IMG/VR virus record: IMGVR_UViG_2526164691_000021
Strand: one strand, 5' to 3'
DNA length: 14,170 nt
From: a virus
Lineage: Duplodnaviria; Heunggongvirae; Uroviricota; Caudoviricetes
Under the pieces are notes generated by a model. It searched no databases and was not told the DNA's origin. It saw nothing but the letters and a program-made list of their open reading frames with translations. The position numbers and the translations under genes were made by a program. Positions within the stretch are counted from its first letter, which is position 1. Each line of letters starts with the position of its first letter. This document shows positions 1,419-10,296 of this stretch, in pieces.

Positions 1419-2489
1419 TTATTTGATTTCAATTTTGTCCCACTCCCTGCCTCTGTCATCACGATACTGTGATGCCATGGTGTCCGACTTATGCCCGAGA
1501 AGATGTTGAGCAAACTTATCGCTTATCTGCTTCTCATAGAGTCTTGCAGACAAACTGCGCAACTCGTGAAAGGTCGGCGGATCCCCTTCGAAGGAAAGAC
1601 CTGATGCTTTTCGTGCGCGCATAAAATACCTTGATACTGTGCCGGATGAAAGCGGTTCACGATGAGTAGATGCAATTATGGTTTCTCCGCCAAGAATCTC
1701 TTTGCATTTATCAAGTGTTTCCTTCATTGATATCCCGAGAGCATCAACATGCAATGTTGTAGGGATGGCAATTTTTACGCCTGTTTTGCTTTGCTCGACA
1801 TAAAGATATCCATCTACGATATCAGACCACTTCATTTCGCATAAATCACCAACTCGCTGCCCGGTAACAACAGCCAGCTCCATTGCAAGTCTTAGCCAAC
1901 ATGGTGATGATTCTGCTGCTTGATAAATTTTCAGGTATTCGTCAGCCGTAAGTCTTGATCTCCTTACCTCTGATTTTGCTGCGCGAGTGGCAGCGACCGG
2001 GTTTGTTGTTATATGGCCTTCAGCTATTGCCTCTCGGAATGCATCGCTCAGTGTTGATCTGATTAACTTGGCTGACGCCGCCTTGCCCTCGTCTATGTAT
2101 CCACTGAGCATTGCCGCAATTTCTTTTGTGGTGATGTCTTCAAGTGGAGCATCAGGCAGCCCCCTCCTTATTGCTTTAATTTTGCTCATGTAATTTATGA
2201 GAGTCTTCTGCTTGATTCCTCTGCTGGCGAGGATTTTTTCGTAGCGATCAAGCCATGAATGTAACGTAACAGAATTATCACTGTTGATTCTCGCTGTCAG
2301 AGGCTTGTGTTTGTGTCCTGAAAATAACTCAATGTTGGCCTGTATTGCTTCAGTGATTGCTATCCTCCTGTCTCGGCCTAATCCAAACTCTTTACCCGTC
2401 CTTGGGTCCCTGTAGCAGTAATATCCATTGTTTCTTATATAAAGATTAGGGGGTAAATCCCGGCGCTCATGACTTCGCCTTCTTCCCAT
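1419..2489 (-). CDS. int: Tyrosine integrase, lambda Int type
   Basis: 356-aa ORF, near-identical to lambda Int as I recall it (MGRRRSHERRDLPPNLYIRNNGYYCYRDPRTGKEF … catalytic region with HELRS and C-terminal Tyr); 5' end overlaps xis as in lambda. Confidence 0.97.
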   Translation of the reverse strand: MGRRRSHERRDLPPNLYIRNNGYYCYRDPRTGKEFGLGRDRRIAITEAIQANIELFSGHKHKPLTARINSDNSVTLHSWLDRYEKILASRGIKQKTLINYMSKIKAIRRGLPDAPLEDITTKEIAAMLSGYIDEGKAASAKLIRSTLSDAFREAIAEGHITTNPVAATRAAKSEVRRSRLTADEYLKIYQAAESSPCWLRLAMELAVVTGQRVGDLCEMKWSDIVDGYLYVEQSKTGVKIAIPTTLHVDALGISMKETLDKCKEILGGETIIASTHREPLSSGTVSRYFMRARKASGLSFEGDPPTFHELRSLSARLYEKQISDKFAQHLLGHKSDTMASQYRDDRGREWDKIEIK

Positions 2490-2685
2490 TTCTGATCCTC
2501 TTCAAAAGGCTACCTGTTACTGGTCGATTTAAGTCAACCTTTACCGCTGATTCGTGGAACAGATACTCTCTTCCATCCTTAACCGGAGGAGGGAATATCC
2601 TGCATTCGCGCACCCATCGACGAACTGTTTCAAGGCTTCTTGGGCGTCGCTGGCGTGCATTCCACTCCTGAAGTGTCAAGTACAT
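2467..2685 (-). CDS. xis: Excisionase Xis
   Basis: 72-aa ORF MYLTLQEWNARQRRPRSLETVRRWVRECRIFPPPVKDGREYLFHESAVKVDLNRP…, matching lambda Xis; overlaps the int start. Confidence 0.95.
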   Translation of the reverse strand: MYLTLQEWNARQRRPRSLETVRRWVRECRIFPPPVKDGREYLFHESAVKVDLNRPVTGSLLKRIRNGKKAKS

Positions 2686-2791
2686 CGCAAAGTCTCCGCA
2701 ATTACACGCAAGAAAAGCCGCATTGATGCGGCGATGGTAGGTCTGGATATCATTGAGCCATGAACAGGCCTCATCGAGTGTGAGGCTGTGG

Positions 2792-3163: not shown

Positions 3164-3331
3164 TCAGGCGGCTTGGTGTTCTTTCAGTTCTTCAATTCGA
3201 ATATTGGTTACGTCTGCATGTGCTATCTGCGCCCATATCATCCAGTGGTCATAGCAGTCATTGATGTTCTCTGCTTCGATAACTCTGTTGAATGGTTCTC
3301 CATTCCATTCACCTGTGACTCGGAAGTGCAT
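3164..3331 (-). CDS. Small hypothetical protein, 55 aa (MHFRVTGEWNGEPFNRVIEAENINDCYDHWMIWAQIAHADVTNIRIEELKEHQAA)
   Basis: Hand-translated; ATG at 3331 preceded by GGAGA with 7-nt spacing; not in the supplied ORF track (below its length cut-off); resembles a small ORF found right of xis in lambda, as far as I recall. Confidence 0.45.
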   Translation of the reverse strand: MHFRVTGEWNGEPFNRVIEAENINDCYDHWMIWAQIAHADVTNIRIEELKEHQAA

Positions 3332-3403
3332 TTATCATCTCCATAAAACAAAATCCGCCGTAGCGAGTTCAGATAAAAGAAATCCCCGCGAGTGCGAGGA
3401 TTG

Positions 3404-3688
3404 TTATTCATTGCCGATATTCACCTTTATCGCGAACACCTTTACCGGTTTATCACCGAAGTGCGGATGTGTGATTGTCTTGATTTCATATCCGTCATAC
3501 GGAACATCAATTCTGCGGCTGGAATCGTCGCGCTTCGGATATCCCTTTGTGATAATCAGGCGGTCATACTCCCGGAACATAATTCGCTTATTCCAATAGT
3601 CATTACACAGGCGATACTCTTCCGTTTTCTCTCCTCGAATCATGGCATCGAAGTATTCACCTTTGACGGCAAGTTGTAGGTTAGCCAC
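3404..3688 (-). CDS. ASCH / DUF3850-like small protein, 94 aa
   Basis: N-terminal pattern LQLAVKGEYFDAMIRGEKTEEYR resembles the DUF3850/ASCH (PUA-like fold) signature; strong SD (AGGAGG) before ATG 3688; 8-nt overlap with the upstream gene. Confidence 0.5.
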   Translation of the reverse strand: MANLQLAVKGEYFDAMIRGEKTEEYRLCNDYWNKRIMFREYDRLIITKGYPKRDDSSRRIDVPYDGYEIKTITHPHFGDKPVKVFAIKVNIGNE

Positions 3689-3983
3689 GGTTAACCTCCT
3701 GCGGAGTAGCCTTTACAAGCACTGGTGCAAATCCATCTTCATTAAGGTTATGAATATAGACTTCTGTTCTCCTGCGCTCTTCAACGTTTAATATTGTTTC
3801 TGGATCATAAACCCATACTTTCATTCGACTATTCCATGAAGAAATCGCTTCAGATCTAGTTCGTTTTTCTGGTCCTTGGGCACCACATTTGCATGACACA
3901 TAGCGCATTTTCCCTCTGATACTGAATGAGTATCCGATGTTAAGCACAGTGGAACCACAGAATGGGCAGCGATATAGATTCAT
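3681..3983 (-). CDS. Lar-family restriction-alleviation-like protein, 100 aa, with C-terminal extension
   Basis: N-terminal CPFCG…CxC…EAISSWNSR motif typical of the Lar family (Rac prophage Lar type); ATGA stop/start overlap with the upstream gene; SD AGGTGG. Confidence 0.55.
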   Translation of the reverse strand: MNLYRCPFCGSTVLNIGYSFSIRGKMRYVSCKCGAQGPEKRTRSEAISSWNSRMKVWVYDPETILNVEERRRTEVYIHNLNEDGFAPVLVKATPQEVNRG

Positions 3984-4597
3984 AAATCATCCACCTTAGG
4001 CGCAGCTGAGACAGCAACATTCCAGAACTCAGAAAACATATTGTATGCACCAGATAGATTGGAAGTAGCATACCCTCCAAGCTCACTTCTAATCTGAACG
4101 GCTCTCATCATTTCCGGGGTTAACTCCTTCGGCACCATAACCCAACCATCCGGAGTTACCGGAGAGTTGCCACCGGGAATATTTTCCGGAATATTTTGTT
4201 GTGCGTTTTGTGGTTGTTCTGATTTACCCTGAAGCATGGCGGCGCGGCAGGCGTTCCAGCCAGCTGTTCGCCCAAGCGCGTAAACTTCAGATGGATCAAG
4301 ATAATCAATGTCATGCCCGTCCTCATCGTCGTTCTCAGGTAATGCAGCAGGTACTACCGGTACTGGCGGAGCGGCGTAGACCTCAATAATTCCATTATCA
4401 ATAGGCCATTCTCCATCCTTGAGGTAGTCACTTGTGCCGTCAACTTGCTGTTCTGCAATGTGGAATGCACCTATTGGTTTTGCTTCCAGCGATGCCAGAG
4501 CAATCCGTGCCAGTTCCATTTGTTCGCCACTAGTAAGTCCGTTATCAAGCGGGGATTTAATGAACAATTCGATACGTTCTTTAGTGATAGTGCTCAT
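3980..4597 (-). CDS. Hypothetical protein, 205 aa
   Basis: ORF track gives 238 aa from an upstream ATG, but the ATG at 4597 (MSTITKERIELF…) has a strong SD (AAGGAGAG) and lies 1 nt after the stop of the upstream gene, so I call this start; acidic, no family recognised. Confidence 0.55.
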   Translation of the reverse strand: MSTITKERIELFIKSPLDNGLTSGEQMELARIALASLEAKPIGAFHIAEQQVDGTSDYLKDGEWPIDNGIIEVYAAPPVPVVPAALPENDDEDGHDIDYLDPSEVYALGRTAGWNACRAAMLQGKSEQPQNAQQNIPENIPGGNSPVTPDGWVMVPKELTPEMMRAVQIRSELGGYATSNLSGAYNMFSEFWNVAVSAAPKVDDL

Positions 4598-4598
4598 A

Positions 4599-5156
4599 TC
4601 ACTCTCCTTTGATGCGAATGCCAGCTGCGCTTGCTGATTCTTCATATGCGCGTTTAGCAGCGTTAAGGATTGCTGCCAGTGGCGTATAGCCGCCATCCAT
4701 TCGGATTGTGTTGTGGATGCCAGCCATTGTGTCGCGCAATTTGCTGTGGCTAGCAGACAGTTCTGCTATGCACTTCTCTGCGGCATCGGCTCGATCTTTT
4801 TCACGCTGGAACATTTTGTGAGTGCGGTCTATAGCTTCGATTCGTGCCGCTGATGTCTTCTGCACGGCTTCAAGCTCAACACGCAGCTTCCCAACCGTAA
4901 GAGCAATATCCTCGTTCTTCTGGTCGCGGCGTTTGATGTATTGCTGGTTTCTTTCCCGTTCATCCAGTAGTGCCAGCACGGTTTCTGGCCCGGTCAGAAA
5001 TTTGAAGGCGTTGAGCGCATCAATATCCACACCGTAATCCTTAAGTTCCTGTTCAGTTAACAAATCATCATCAACTGGCAACATTAACAGGCGTTCCATT
5101 GCCGGAATTGCACGCTCTGCCGCCTCACGCAGTGCCTGATAGTCAATCTTGCTCAT
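4599..5156 (-). CDS. Ead/Ea22-like coiled-coil protein, 185 aa
   Basis: Central coiled-coil region and C-terminal end (…AAGIRIKGE) resemble lambda Ea22 as I recall it; ATGA overlap with the upstream gene. Confidence 0.55.
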   Translation of the reverse strand: MSKIDYQALREAAERAIPAMERLLMLPVDDDLLTEQELKDYGVDIDALNAFKFLTGPETVLALLDERERNQQYIKRRDQKNEDIALTVGKLRVELEAVQKTSAARIEAIDRTHKMFQREKDRADAAEKCIAELSASHSKLRDTMAGIHNTIRMDGGYTPLAAILNAAKRAYEESASAAGIRIKGE

Positions 5157-5710
5157 TGGATGACTCCTTTACGAAGCTGTTCGGCGATATCTTCGAGAAC
5201 GCCATCAGAGAATGAACGGTCAAAATCGCCTTCCGGCGCATTGGCCATAAACTCAGTAGAGGTAAGAATCATCCGGGCAATATCAGCGGCGTTCTTCGCA
5301 GTATCATCAATAAAACCAGCTTCCCAGGCAGCCAGCATTCTGTTCGCCACAAAGTAAGCGCCCTCCTTGCGTGCTTCAGTCTTCACTTCAGCCAGAAAAG
5401 CATCGGTGGCTGGGGTTTCAGTAATATCATCTTCCCATTCGCTAAACTCCTCACGACAAAAGTCATTAAATTCCTTCTCAGATTGCTTAAGCGAGGAATT
5501 TTCAGCAGCCATCTTCGCGCATTTAGCCTCAAGGTTATCAATCGTGATTCCAGCAGAACGACACTCCCGCAACGCCGTTTCTAGTTTTGATTCAAGTTCA
5601 CCGAACTTACGGACAAGATATTCATCGTTTGTTTCGTCAACCTTTAAATCACTTGGGATGCATTTACCTTTCAGAAAACCATCCATCTCAATTAGTGTCA
5701 TTTGTTTCAT
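5153..5710 (-). CDS. Hypothetical acidic protein, 185 aa
   Basis: ORF track start (5728) is a GTG with no SD; the ATG at 5710 ([10 protein letters not shown]…) has GGAG/GGGAAG upstream and forms an ATGA overlap with the preceding small ORF, so I call 5710. Confidence 0.5.
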
Positions 5711-5871
5711 TTCTTCCCACTCCGCCACATCGCATTCAGATATTTGTTGTCATTAACAGAACCGAAACTCTTTCTCTTAAGCAATTCCTCTCTCGATGGC
5801 ATTGGCTTTGCGCGTTGGCGAATAATCATTTCTGCCGGAAGAATGCCGGGATTGTATGCAAGTCCTCTCAT
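5707..5871 (-). CDS. Small hypothetical protein, 54 aa ([54 protein letters not shown])
   Basis: Start chosen at the ATG at 5871 with GAGGAA SD; ATGA overlap with the downstream gene; the longer 104-aa track ORF overlaps the better-supported 97-aa gene in another frame. Confidence 0.4.
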
Positions 5872-5881
5872 GGTAAATTCC

Positions 5882-6175
5882 TCAGTCATTACTGATAGCG
5901 CCATAGCGTGAGCGGTAATTACGCAGGCGCGGGTCAATTTCAGGGAAGTGGGTATATGTGGCTTTGCGGAATGGTCGGATTGATGTCTGGTAAATTCGCT
6001 CGCGTTCTTCTTTCTCTGCAAGCCATATACAATGGCGAAATTCCTTTTCCTCTTTCGTTTCCTGCGGTAGCGACATTATCCGATCGTAGTTTTTTCTGAA
6101 TTTATCCAGCACCTCCGATACGGAATTGCCGGAACAGCGGCGCGCGTCATCCGCACCATACAGAGGCGCTGGCAT
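5882..6175 (-). CDS. Hypothetical protein, 97 aa; position and size are compatible with a P22 Abc2-like anti-RecBCD protein (speculative)
   Basis: ATG at 6175 with AAGGA SD; lies downstream of the Erf/SSB pair; Abc2 assignment rests on size and synteny only. Confidence 0.5.
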
Positions 6176-6198
6176 AATTAAATCCTTATTTTTCTAAA

Positions 6199-6582
6199 TC
6201 AGAATGGGATGGAATCGTCGTATACAGGAGTGTTCTGCTGGTTACTACTTTGCTGCTGCGGGCCATTTCCTGAAGCTGCAAATCCAATCTTTGCATTCAG
6301 TAATTCAAGAGTGATTGATTGACCATTTTGCCCCTGATAAACATCAACCCTGATGTTTTCTCCGGTAATTTCCACAATGCCACCTTCAACAAGAACACTA
6401 CGGTAGTAATCCGCTTGCGCTCCCGGCTTGGCAAATACAACGGCGCTGTAGTTTGTCCATTCTTTCTTTTTTGTCTGGCGATCGTAATACTGAACGCCAG
6501 CACGGATGTTGAATCCGATATTTTCCCCGGTCTGAAACTCTCTTGCGGGCTTGTTTAGTCTTACAGTAATCGAATGTGCCAT
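6199..6582 (-). CDS. SSB-like single-stranded DNA-binding protein, 127 aa
   Basis: C-terminal acidic tail …YDDSIPF resembles the SSB protein-interaction tail DDDIPF; start placed at ATG 6582 (MAHSITV…), overlapping the Erf stop (TAATG), with AAGGAG upstream. Confidence 0.55.
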   Translation of the reverse strand: MAHSITVRLNKPAREFQTGENIGFNIRAGVQYYDRQTKKKEWTNYSAVVFAKPGAQADYYRSVLVEGGIVEITGENIRVDVYQGQNGQSITLELLNAKIGFAASGNGPQQQSSNQQNTPVYDDSIPF

Positions 6583-7197: not shown

Positions 7198-7368
7198 TCA
7201 GAATGGACACGGCCCAAGGAAATAACGCTGATTTAATACTTCGACTCGGGACAAATTAAGGCATACCCGCATTCCTTCGCGGTCACCATTATGGCGATAC
7301 CAGAGAGCTTTCTGCGTGTACATGCGCCTCTGTAACTTGCTCTCCTTCACTGTGGTTGCAAGTGACAT
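7198..7368 (-). CDS. Small hypothetical protein, 56 aa (MSLATTVKESKLQRRMYTQKALWYRHNGDREGMRVCLNLSEVEVLNQRYFLGPCPF); position corresponds to P22 arf
   Basis: Hand-translated; near-perfect SD (GAAGGAGATATTC) before ATG 7368; directly upstream of erf; not in the ORF track. Confidence 0.4.
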   Translation of the reverse strand: MSLATTVKESKLQRRMYTQKALWYRHNGDREGMRVCLNLSRVEVLNQRYFLGPCPF

Positions 7369-7443
7369 GAATATCTCCTTCGTTACCGATTAATTCTTTC
7401 ATCTGACGAATGAATTCTTCGTCTGACCAGTTATCTGTAAAAC

Positions 7444-7596
7444 TCATTTCCTGCGATAACACGGAAGGTTGATAGCTGATTTCATCGCTTTATTTGCTTC
7501 AAGCCACATTTTTGAATCACCAATAAATCGGGCTATTACTGCCTTGTTCTGTGCAGCACGAAGCATCTGGTGATTGATGGCTATTTCATTGCGCAT
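7444..7596 (-). CDS. kil: Kil-like small protein, 50 aa (MRNEIAINHQMLRAAQNKAVIARFIGDSKMWLEANKAMKSAINLPCYRRK)
   Basis: Hand-translated; …IARFIGDSKMW… resembles the lambda Kil core (…IATFIGDEKMF…) from memory; position between the CIII-like ORF and the recombination genes matches lambda synteny; SD GAGG. Confidence 0.4.
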   Translation of the reverse strand: MRNEIAINHQMLRAAQNKAVIARFIGDSKMWLEANKAMKSAINLPCYRRK

Positions 7597-7736: not shown

Positions 7737-8597
7737 TTAGTAGGTTATTTTTGTTGCGAATAATTCGCCTTTTACGATGGCTGTTATGATATTTTTAGCA
7801 ACATCTTCTGATGCGCCAACCTTGATAAGGTCAGCAAGTATTTTGTTATTTACTTCTTTCCGGTGAGCTTTATCCTTTGCTCTACGCTCTTCTTCGTCCT
7901 TGATTCTTTTTTCTTCTGCTATTCTGGCTTGCTCTTTTGCTTCAGCCTCGCGCAGGATTCGTTCTGCCTCCTCCTGTGCTTTACGGCGTTCTGCTTCAAT
8001 TGCCGCATGCTTTTCTCTTTCAGCTCGTTCTGCTGCCTCTTTTGCTTCGCGCTGTGCTCGTTGCTCGGCTTCAATGCGTTCACGCTCTGCACGTTCCTCT
8101 GCGGCCTTAGCTTCTGCTTCTCGCCTTGCTGCTGCTTCAATTTCGGCTTTTGCCTTTGCTTCGGCTTCAGCTCTGGCTTTCTCTTCAGCTTCTCTTTTTA
8201 AGCGTTCTTCATGCTCTCGCTTTTCCTGCTCCGCTTTGAGTCTTGCCTCTTCTCTTTGGCGGTCAAATTCGCGATCCATCAAAATCGCTATTTCATGGTC
8301 AGACTCAATTTGCTTTGCGAGAGCTTCAGCTGCTGCCTTAGCTTCTTCTTCGGCTTTAATCCGCGCCTGTTCTTCCTCATAATCAGTAAGAGGCTGGCGC
8401 GCCTTGGCTTTCAGTTCATCAAGGCGATCGCGCACTGTCTTGCGGTTAGCATCAATTAGCTTTGGAATTTCCTTCAGTTCAGCAACAAGGTCTTTGCCAA
8501 GACCATCGAGATATGTTTTCGTCTGCGCAACTTTATACGCCAGATAAGCGATCTCCTTTCTGCCCTTTGCCGTTGTGATATCAGGCACAAAGGACAT
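7737..8597 (-). CDS. Hypothetical protein, 286 aa, with a long E/A/K/R-rich charged repeat region
   Basis: Long ORF; the central ~170 aa are EAEAKAKAE / ERAEREK-type low-complexity repeats, seen at DNA level as reiterated gcttc/gctgc units; no family recognised; weak SD at the called start. Confidence 0.55.
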   Translation of the reverse strand: MSFVPDITTAKGRKEIAYLAYKVAQTKTYLDGLGKDLVAELKEIPKLIDANRKTVRDRLDELKAKARQPLTDYEEEQARIKAEEEAKAAAEALAKQIESDHEIAILMDREFDRQREEARLKAEQEKREHEERLKREAEEKARAEAEAKAKAEIEAAARREAEAKAAEERAERERIEAEQRAQREAKEAAERAEREKHAAIEAERRKAQEEAERILREAEAKEQARIAEEKRIKDEEERRAKDKAHRKEVNNKILADLIKVGASEDVAKNIITAIVKGELFATKITY

Positions 8598-8746: not shown

Positions 8747-8967
8747 AGAAGATTTCCAATAATCAGAACAAGTCGGCTCCTGTTTAGTTACGAGCGACAT
8801 TGCTCCGTGTATTCACTCGTTGGAATGAATACACAGTGCAGTGTTTATTCGTATGCCTGTCTTTTAACCACATCAGGCTCGGTGGTTCTCGTGTACCCCT
8901 ACAGCGAGAAATCGGATAAACTCTATTCACCCCTACAGAGAGAATGATGGAGATTCTGGATTTGCCC

Positions 8968-9873
8968 CTATATTTCCAGACACCTGTTATCACTTAACCC
9001 ATTACTGGCTTGCTGCCGTAGATATTCCCGTGGCGAGCGATAACCCAGTGCACTATGCGGATGCCATTCGTTATAATGCTCGAACGCCTCTGCAAGGTTC
9101 TTTGCTGCCGTTAACCCGTCTGGTTTGGGCATGACACTGATGTAGTCACGCTTTATCGTTTTCACGAAGCTCTCTGCTATGCCGTTACTCTCCGGACTCC
9201 GCACCGCCGTGCTCTTCGGTTCAAGCCCCAACATCCGGGCAAACTGCCGTGTTTCATTAGCCCGGTAGCATGAACCATTATCCGTCAGCCACTCTACTGG
9301 AGACGCCGGAAGCTCGTTGCCGAAGCGGCGTTCCACCGCTCCCAGCATGACGTCCTGTACTGTTTCACTGTTGAAGCCGCCCGTAGTGACCGCCCAGTGC
9401 AGTGCCTCACGGTCACAGCAGTCCAGCGCGAACGTGACTCGCAGTTTTTCTCCGTTATCACAGCGGAACTCGAACCCGTCAGAGCACCATCGCTGATTAC
9501 TTTCTTTCACAGCCACTCTGCCTGTATGTGCCCGTTTCGATGGCGGTACAGCAGGTTTTCGCTCAAGCAACAGCGCATTCTGGCGCATGATCCGGTAAAC
9601 ACGTTTGGCATTGATCGCAGGCATACCATCAAGTTCTGCCTGTCTGCGAAGCAGCGCCCATACCCGACGATAACCATACGTGGGCAGCTCTCCGATAACA
9701 TGGTGTATACGGAGAAGCACATCCGTATCATCAGTGTGACGACTGCGGCGGCCATCCATCCAGTCATCGGTTCGTCTGAGAATGACGTGCAACTGCGCAC
9801 GCGACACCCGGAGACAACGGCTGACTAAGCTTACTCCCCATCCCCGGGCAATAAGGGCGCGTGCGCTATCCAC
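8968..9873 (-). CDS. insD: IS2 transposase OrfB (InsD), normally made as an InsCD fusion by -1 frameshift
   Basis: 301-aa ORF with IS3-family DDE transposase sequence matching IS2 InsD; overlaps the insC 3' end in the -1 frame. Confidence 0.9.
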
Positions 9874-10196
9874 TTTTTTGCCCGTCCATATTCAACGGCT
9901 TCTTTGAGGAGTTCATTTTCCATCGTTTTCTTGCCGAGCAGGCGCTGGAGTTCTTTAATCTGCTTCATGGCGGCAGCAAGTTCAGAGGCAGGAACAACCT
10001 GTTCTCCGGCGGCGACAGCAGTAAGACTTCCTTCCTGGTATTGCTTACGCCAGAGAAATAACTGGCTGGCTGCTACACCATGTTGCCGGGCAACGAGGGA
10101 GACCGTCATCCCTGGTTCAAAGCTCTGCTGAACAATTGCGATCTTTTCCTGTGTGGTACGCCGTCTGCGTTTCTCCGGTCCTAAGACATCAATCAT
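9831..10196 (-). CDS. insC: IS2 OrfA (InsC), HTH regulatory / transposase N-terminal protein
   Basis: 121 aa starting [41 protein letters not shown]…; the track ORF extends 15 codons upstream, but the IS2 protein starts at the ATG at 10196. Confidence 0.9.
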
Positions 10197-10296
10197 CTGC
10201 TCTCCAATGACTAGTCTAAAAACTAGTATTAAGACTATCACTTAAATAAGTGATACTGGTTGTCTGGAGATTCAGGGGGCCAGTCTAGATTCACCG

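Follow-up and report, generated by a model that had tools for sequence, protein, structure and literature searches.

A mosaic ea accessory segment in the early-left operon of an Stx1a-converting lambdoid prophage

What do four tightly packed genes from named but functionally obscure phage families do, and do they belong together? The question is raised by positions 3980-5871 of a 14,170-nucleotide (nt) stretch of Caudoviricetes DNA (IMG/VR record IMGVR_UViG_2526164691_000021; the whole stretch is here called the window), where four consecutive genes are joined by stop/start junctions. A first-pass annotation, made from the letters of the sequence, took them for a translationally coupled set of unknown proteins. 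The window is an Stx1a-converting lambdoid prophage, and the run is the P22-type "ea" accessory segment of its early-left pL operon. Our favoured reading, held with moderate confidence, is that ORF56/DUF2737, eaE, ead/ea22 and eaA genes form a mosaic accessory segment of an N-antiterminated pL operon, with the roles proposed below. The four genes are:

5707-5871, minus strand: DUF2737 gene, 54 amino acids (aa), isoelectric point (pI) 10.7; starts 10 nt after the abc2 stop; homologue of P22 ORF56, HK446 gp28 and HK97 gp38
5153-5710, minus strand: EaE/Oad2-family gene, its product here called g185, 185 aa, pI 4.43; phrog_614, E 2.9e-79, residues 1-184
4599-5156, minus strand: Ead/Ea22-like gene, 185 aa, pI 5.56; conserved N-terminus, coiled-coil core at residues 59-98, GIRIKGE tail, and a rare segment between core and tail
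3980-4597, minus strand: EaA-like gene, its product here called g205, 205 aa, pI 4.25; P22-EaA-type N-terminus, conserved middle block, hinge GNSPVTPDGW and 64-aa C-terminal domain

Four Stx1a-converting phage records, as well as prophages in O26 and O103 enterohaemorrhagic Escherichia coli (EHEC) genomes, match positions 3600-6300 at 100% identity. The chromosome side of the window has ybhC, then int and xis, both 97% identical to lambda, and after the left-side genes the window carries cII, putative cro, cI, N and sieB. Given that every gene from N through int is on the minus strand, the run sits in the early-left pL operon, with N, cI and cII upstream of it and in a position equivalent to exo-xis. 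Upstream of the run are a gp33 homologue, Erf, a gp31 homologue and Abc2, the recombination locus of HK446 and HK75. The P22 order of erf, abc1, abc2, ORF56, eae, (eaf), ead, (eai), eaa ... xis, int is also the order of the window, which matches HK446 and HK75 as well. Inside the run no promoter-like site was found on the coding strand, the first terminator-like hairpin (3381-3402) lies after an ASCH-domain gene further downstream, and an Rfam scan of the window found no RNA family. The locus is in itself ordinary: its DNA is identical to that of deposited Stx1a phages, its four genes are in named families, and nothing in it is categorically new.

Gene calls and coupling

The gene coordinates of the first-pass annotation hold, as do the junctions, which can be read directly from the sequence as ATGA at 5707-5710, 5153-5156 and 3980-3983 and as TGA-t-ATG at 4595-4601. 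The final codons of the gene upstream of a junction contain a Shine-Dalgarno-like sequence (AAAGGAG at 5164-5170, AAAGGAGAG at 4602-4610 and AAGGTGG at 3991-3997), and the NCBI Prokaryotic Genome Annotation Pipeline (PGAP) uses the same start codons on the identical stretch of E. coli E2865. Since the run proteins are matched by Pfam or PHROG, since identical proteins occur on about 1000 contigs, and since against 92-94%-identical alleles the EaE-family gene has a pairwise dN/dS of 0.21 and the EaA-like gene one of 0.19, the four open reading frames (ORFs) are real genes under purifying selection and not chance ORFs. NCBIfam names none of the four, its sole match being Lar for a neighbouring gene. 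The view that no member of the run has a recognisable function, an Ea22-like resemblance apart, is not supported, as all four fall in named families (DUF2737/P22 ORF56, EaE/Oad2, Ea22 and EaA).

On identical DNA, three features are incomplete or partial according to PGAP: the Lar gene, the Ea22-like ORF and, in the 205-aa ORF, the first 46 codons. The C-terminal segment of the Ea22-like gene (DNA 4641-4860), moreover, is rare, being common to 0/73 other loci. Both observations would fit decaying remnants of recombination. Such an origin for the Ea22-like and 205-aa ORFs, and for lar, is nonetheless very improbable: the frames are intact, as are ribosome-binding sites and coupling, the proteins recur unchanged on the many contigs mentioned, and the 205-aa gene has the low dN/dS given above. 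Block mosaicism is normal for these families, so that "partial" calls are an expected artefact of best-hit annotation, and mosaicism probably accounts for the pseudogene flags that PGAP sets in this region.

The coupling was compared across 80 IMG/VR loci anchored on Abc2, 75 of them distinct, by chaining ORFs downstream of abc2, a procedure that reproduces the window gene calls through the ASCH gene and miscalls orf55. The 75 loci contain 552 junctions, among them 163 (30%) 4-nt overlaps, 37 of 8 nt, 26 of 1 nt and 30 longer overlaps; a further 79 have a spacing of 0-3 nt and 84 one of 4-15 nt, and 76% of the junctions are tight (within 15 nt). In the window itself the coupled run goes on past the four genes, into a Lar-like gene (4-nt ATGA overlap) and the ASCH gene (8-nt overlap). 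The four-gene box cuts an arbitrary piece out of a tightly packed operon in which tight coupling is the default; the "coordinated stoichiometric expression" of a functional set that had been read from the coupling is not supported.

Nor do the genes travel together. Across the loci the four assort independently: 7/75 keep the window set, and these seem to be one and the same type of prophage. Loci commonly have a loose skeleton of an EaE-headed, then an Ea22-headed, then an EaA-like gene, with members frequently lacking or separated by other genes, and the genes that come after the EaE-type C-terminal domain are of at least six kinds. That the four (or three) proteins form one stoichiometric complex whose subunit ratios are set by coupling, as first proposed, draws on stop/start overlaps that are real, on an EaE-like, Ea22-like, EaA-like order that recurs in many loci, and on inter-family fusions (including phrog_14548, and also in the preprint on the HK446 protein Oad2, 10.64898/2026.07.10.737580). 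It is nevertheless quite unlikely: coupling is a whole-operon default, the allele set is so seldom kept, one or two genes are frequently absent or have unrelated genes inserted between them, the EaE-type domain changes its downstream neighbour, and cloned Oad2 works alone (10.64898/2026.07.10.737580). There is no sign that the four proteins form a fixed complex.

Islands and swapped modules

The assortment extends below the level of the gene. A depth profile of DNA matches (>=80% identity) across 73 non-identical loci resolves the run into short islands split by segments common to only 0-9 loci:

5600-5720: start of the EaE-family gene; 45 loci
5381-5420: hinge island of the EaE-family gene, at the boundary of coiled coil and C-terminal domain; about 28 (26-32) loci; a 33-58-bp match, also in Oad2 and HK75 gp28
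5115-5185 (profile 5121-5180), minus strand: junction island with the EaE end (LRKGVIQ), AAAGGAG at 5164-5170, ATGA and the first 14 Ea22-like codons; about 45/73 loci
4861-4980: Ea22 coiled-coil core; 36 loci
4595-4630 (profile 4581-4640), minus strand: junction island GGCATTCGCATCAAAGGAGAGTGAtATG, with the Ea22 tail ...GIRIKGE, Shine-Dalgarno AAGGAG, stop, 1 nt and start; 44 loci
4481-4520: inside the EaA-like gene; 35 loci
4142-4172 (profile 4141-4180), minus strand: hinge island GNSPVTPDGW before the swappable EaA C-terminal domain; 45/73 loci, with a sharp end at 4142

The gene bodies flanking the 5115-5185 island are common to only 2-6 loci, in many loci the 36-bp match of the 4595-4630 island runs up to the ATG with which the next gene starts and no further, and the GNSPVTPDGW hinge is followed in relatives by other tails, DUF551 for example. 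At 5381-5419 variation is higher at third codon positions (0.141) than at the first and second (0.015 and 0.010), which indicates constraint at the protein level. The GNSPVTPDGW island differs from the others in showing roughly the same conservation at each codon position. Right beside it is a perfect 7-bp palindromic hairpin, CCGGGAATATTTTCCGG, at 4173-4189.

Piecewise tblastn matches give the same picture of parts, with residues 1-43, 1-113, 1-142 or 1-185 of the EaE-family protein, residues 1-97 of the Ea22-like protein or its whole length at 35-40%, and anything from 1-46 to 1-205 of the EaA-like protein. Parts are also exchanged across families, as chimeras of an EaE head with the lambda Ea22 C-terminal domain, of an Ea22 head with the EaE C-terminal domain, and of the DUF551 tail known from EaA with an EaE or an Ea22 head, including a 308-aa Ead_Ea22+DUF551 fusion. 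The block structure is seen in protein alignments too. As judged from their sequences, the three larger proteins are built of modules: head and hinge are conserved, a coiled coil or linker lies between them, and the C-terminal domain can be swapped. The EaE, Ea22 and EaA families trade heads and tails at defined hinges, from which one can predict where in each protein specificity resides.

The arrangement resembles the boundary-sequence model of lambdoid mosaicism (HK620, Sf6; summarised in PMC3233612) in having short conserved gene starts and ends with unrelated bodies between, and the Sf6 record marks boundary sequence bsq3 at the start of its Ead/Ea22 gene. It departs from that model in that several window islands are intragenic, at domain boundaries, and most are under protein-level constraint. 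Phage annealases reportedly recombine diverged sequences (PMC3945230), which, like the boundary-sequence model, speaks for recombination between short homologies. The islands would be both translation-coupling signals and homology patches for Erf/Red-type annealases, and recombination at them would yield a combinatorial set of oligomeric scaffolds with variable target-binding tails.

The junction island at 4595-4630 also bears on the tail of Ea22 proteins. All Ea22 proteins end in K/R-G-E, the significance of which has been called unknown (PMC7093339). The window protein likewise ends ...GIRIKGE, encoded by AAAGGAGAG and followed by TGA, 1 nt and the ATG of the next gene. A K/R-G-E end occurs in 52/627 ORFs of the 75 loci, and in 46/49 cases with a downstream gene the next ATG comes exactly 1 nt after the stop. 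The GIRIKGE tail is found on 33 different head-and-length types, EaE-headed proteins among them, and other tails (LRKGGNQ, PLPEPPL and PQEVNRG) behave likewise. In lambda an identical 27 nt of the tail is kept, though no annotated gene directly follows. This pattern suggests that the tail is a junction element, acting as a ribosome-binding and coupling signal and as a boundary sequence. Overlap with the ribosome-binding site and coupling junction of the next gene would be a simple explanation for the Ea22 "K/RGE" motif.

Proposed roles of the proteins

The first gene of the run may be functionally tied to its neighbour. Its product matches PF10930 at 98.3 bits against a cutoff of 25 (residues 1-52, on a 53-position model) and is 96% identical to HK446 gp28 and 72% to P22 ORF56. 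DUF2737 was found by tblastn in 80/80 Abc2-anchored loci, and in 69/75 chained loci it stands directly after abc2 or after a gp29-like gene inserted behind abc2. A contig scan with DUF2737 itself gave five species-representative genome loci, too few for statistics, with abc2 just upstream in 5/5, one of these Abc2 proteins being only 75% identical. That DUF2737 accompanies abc2, with one gene between them in Sf6 and HK446, suggests a functional tie to Abc2, in a sample biased toward close relatives.

The second gene offers the clearest lead. Its product g185 can be divided as follows:

5513-5710, minus strand: residues 1-66, EaE-family head
5417-5512, minus strand: residues 67-98, variable acidic middle
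5156-5416, minus strand: residues 99-185, hinge and P22-EaE-type C-terminal domain

The best family is phrog_614 for g185, Oad2, HK75 gp28 and P22 EaE alike. BLAST aligns g185 with Oad2 at 61% identity over residues 1-114, the 66-aa head being about 93% identical, and with P22 EaE at 77% over residues 60-183. Like Oad2, g185 is encoded right after DUF2737 in the abc2 locus with a 4-nt overlap, and EaE/Oad2 genes occupy this position directly downstream of DUF2737 in the window, HK446, HK75, P22 and 52/75 loci. The two proteins share head, hinge and a ...QLRKG..Q-type tail end but differ in middle segment and C-terminal domain: the Oad2-type C-terminal region was not found in g185, and in hhalign the profile of the EaE C-terminal domain aligns with Oad2 over no more than 19 columns, those of the hinge. 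Representative protein clusters with the P22-EaE-type C-terminal domain (about 85 aa) number 247, and in almost all cases the domain stands at the C-terminus, preceded by unrelated N-terminal parts. It has no Pfam model, and a Pfam scan of 86 diverse proteins that carry it, for informative fusions, gave only three with Ead_Ea22 and one with RNase_T. A profile search of the PDB found no relative of the domain, PDB sequence searches with each larger protein and with this profile returning only marginal coiled-coil or designed-repeat matches; PADLOC defence models likewise gave only marginal coiled-coil-type matches to the run proteins (E 0.0035 or worse).

Oad2 (OLD anti-defence 2, HK446 gp27) binds P2 OLD and blocks its activation, Gp33 triggers the P2 OLD abortive system, a 54%-identical HK75 homologue of Oad2 with another tail is inactive against OLD, and Oad2 is related to P22 EaE and sometimes fused to Ead/Ea22 (bioRxiv 10.64898/2026.07.10.737580). 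By analogy we infer that g185 may be a counter-defence protein with its specificity in the tail. The prophage carries an HK446/HK75/P22-like recombination module (gp33, Erf, gp31 and Abc2) next to the accessory segment, and in the mechanism we propose g185 would bind and silence, as Oad2 does, a host- or prophage-encoded abortive-infection protein that would otherwise fire on phage tampering with RecBCD (Abc2, gp33). Its target is probably not P2 OLD itself, given that the C-terminal domain is of the P22-EaE and not the Oad2 type. The earlier suggestion that the run holds counter-defence genes has gained direct support for one family, through membership of g185 in phrog_614 with an inhibitor of P2 OLD. 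The description of the setting as a non-essential early-left accessory region near counter-defence genes is borne out by Abc2 on the upstream side and Lar on the downstream side. The gene at 5153-5710, very common in EHEC prophages, is placed, with a different tail, in the family of the first characterised OLD inhibitor, and g185 becomes a concrete candidate for defence-inhibitor screens.

Several points weigh against this interpretation of the run. Past the 19-column hinge g185 and Oad2 have unrelated C-terminal domains and, given this different tail and the inactivity of the HK75 homologue, anti-defence activity is not simply transferable to g185. Loci with the OLD trigger gp33 do not carry the EaE head significantly more often than others (odds ratio 2.4, p = 0.22). 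In most islands variation is in excess at third codon positions, so that these are conserved peptides and more than DNA recombination signals, and a role for islands as recombination linkers is drawn only from breakpoint positions. Homologue searches with the run proteins returned almost only near-identical E. coli sequences, so the alignments for modelling were shallow, and AlphaFold2 models made from them, with a mean predicted local distance difference test (pLDDT) of 45.8 for g185 and 39.3 for g205, are too poor to confirm the head/coiled-coil/tail layout. Finally, the pL operon is interrupted upstream of the run by an IS2 element (8951-10292), which has the orientation of the operon and separates sieB/N from the early-left genes, so that expression in this particular prophage is uncertain and possibly altered; the Stx1a phage records that are 100% identical over the run do not cover the IS2 stretch.

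The acidity of g185 and g205 had been taken as a hint of DNA mimicry. The acidity itself stands for these two (net charge -17 for g185 and -18 for g205) but not for the Ea22-like protein, whose pI of 5.56 is not strongly acidic. DNA mimics like Ocr or ArdA, titrating DNA-binding host enzymes, would be consistent with the pI values of 4.43 and 4.25, with acidic patches at g185 residues 67-98 and g205 residues 81-140, and with the neighbouring anti-restriction gene lar. Yet the suggestion, which we consider highly improbable, has behind it only a net charge of about -9 per 100 aa, typical for these families, and Ocr is roughly two to three times more negative. Moreover, 10% of the proteins encoded in the region have a pI below 4.5 and 37% one below 5, the one characterised relative, Oad2, acts by protein-protein binding, and the models are too poor to give structural support from shape.

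The third gene has the best studied relatives. The Ea22-like resemblance noticed at first is confirmed by PF13935 (104.5 bits against a cutoff of 27, E 9e-30, residues 2-131) and by a full-length alignment with lambda Ea22 (36% identity, E 3e-26). In this alignment N-terminus, coiled-coil core and tail are conserved; lambda Ea22 itself is described as having three parts, a short N-terminal one, a central coiled coil and a C-terminal domain. The window protein is like lambda Ea22 and P22 Ead in its N-terminus, its coiled-coil core (LLDERERNQQYIKRRDQ.NEDIALTVGKLRVELE), its AGIRIKGE tail and its operon position, and unlike lambda Ea22 in residues 101-178, which are unrelated to the lambda C-terminal domain (PDB 8DSX) and rare among relatives: it has no 8DSX match at E < 1, whereas lambda Ea22 matches 8DSX at E 1e-51. 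At the DNA level lambda has only three conserved islands in common with the window ea22. Ea22 of lambda and Stx phages is a tetrameric coiled-coil protein favouring lysogeny, and ea22 deletion shifts development toward lysis (PMC7093339, PMC10834534). The homologue in the window most likely acts in the same way, as a coiled-coil oligomer biasing toward lysogeny.

On this basis the run proteins as a whole might act on host regulators, with Ea22 as the prolysogenic member. The deletion phenotypes in lambda and Stx phages (PMC7093339; PMC10834534), the full-length alignment with lambda Ea22 and the position equivalent to exo-xis all speak for this, and we regard it as possible, if rather unlikely. 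Such data exist only for the Ea22 family, and the window protein does not have the lambda-type C-terminal domain. The one biochemically defined relative in the families of the run, Oad2, is a defence inhibitor, and cassettes as extremely diverse as these are more in keeping with an arms race than with conserved host regulation. Regulation and counter-defence are not mutually exclusive.

The fourth gene encodes the protein that source databases label "Eaa protein". It is 54% identical to P22 EaA over the N-terminal residues 1-80 (E 3e-21); the two also have in common that the last domain is preceded by the hinge GNSPV(T/I)P(D/G)GW and that the gene lies downstream of ead. P22 EaA, however, has 317 aa, and the 205-aa protein is without its long middle region and its C-terminal DUF551, ending in another tail of 64 aa. 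A search for DUF551 (PF04448) in the 205-aa protein gave no Pfam match; this domain is present in close relatives whose first 150 residues are the same, and protein alignment of EaA-like relatives shows alternative N- and C-terminal blocks. A wider proposal, which we find doubtful, is that EaE, Ead/Ea22 and EaA are one combinatorial library of head/coiled-coil/tail inhibitors with a shared pool of C-terminal domains, each neutralising a different abortive-infection sensor of host or prophage. If it is true, the P22-EaE-type C-terminal domain would be a new anti-defence domain with a target other than P2 OLD.

Neighbouring genes and insertions

The genes on either side of the run are:

7289-7447, minus strand: gp33 homologue, a 52-aa ORF, 90% identical to HK75 gp33; 4-nt overlap with the kil stop codon
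6199-6582, minus strand: gp31 homologue
5882-6175, minus strand: abc2 (anti-RecBCD), directly upstream of the run and the locus anchor; PF11043, E 5.6e-63; 93% identical to P22 Abc2
3681-3983, minus strand: Lar-like restriction-alleviation gene, 100 aa; TIGR03655 E 5e-16, PF14354; ATGA overlap with the EaA-like gene
3404-3688, minus strand: ASCH-domain gene (PGAP name), 94 aa, last of the coupled run; 8-nt overlap with the Lar-like gene, hairpin 3381-3402 after it

The Lar-like tail ...PQEVNRG encodes AGGAGG and the GTG start of the ASCH gene, and this tail is common to 7 different protein types. The Lar-like ORF is composite: residues 1-53 are a Lar zinc-ribbon, which PGAP calls a pseudogene, and the C-terminal 47 aa are a protein of their own in the PGAP annotation. 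Sf6 and other loci have intact Lar-like proteins, 98-100 aa long. Further left, a 55-aa ORF at 3164-3331 (minus strand) is 100% identical to lambda orf55 (lambdap35), and window positions 1419-2716 together with ybhC at the left end show lambda-type integration next to ybhC.

The IS2 element comprises insC (9831-10241) and insD (8968-9873), both on the minus strand, with inverted repeats at 8965-8996 and 10247-10278. E. coli E2865 (locus L002) and strain 2014C-3051 (H26) have IS3-family (IS600-like) insertions within the accessory region, that of E2865 being placed between a 114-aa gene and orf55; such insertions in other strains indicate that the accessory region tolerates disruption. Upstream of gp33, a 286-aa ORF rich in Glu, Ala, Lys and Arg (7737-8597, minus strand) has no Pfam match; its E. 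coli E2865 equivalent is a PGAP "TolA" pseudogene with an internal stop, and a 322-aa version occurs in related prophages.

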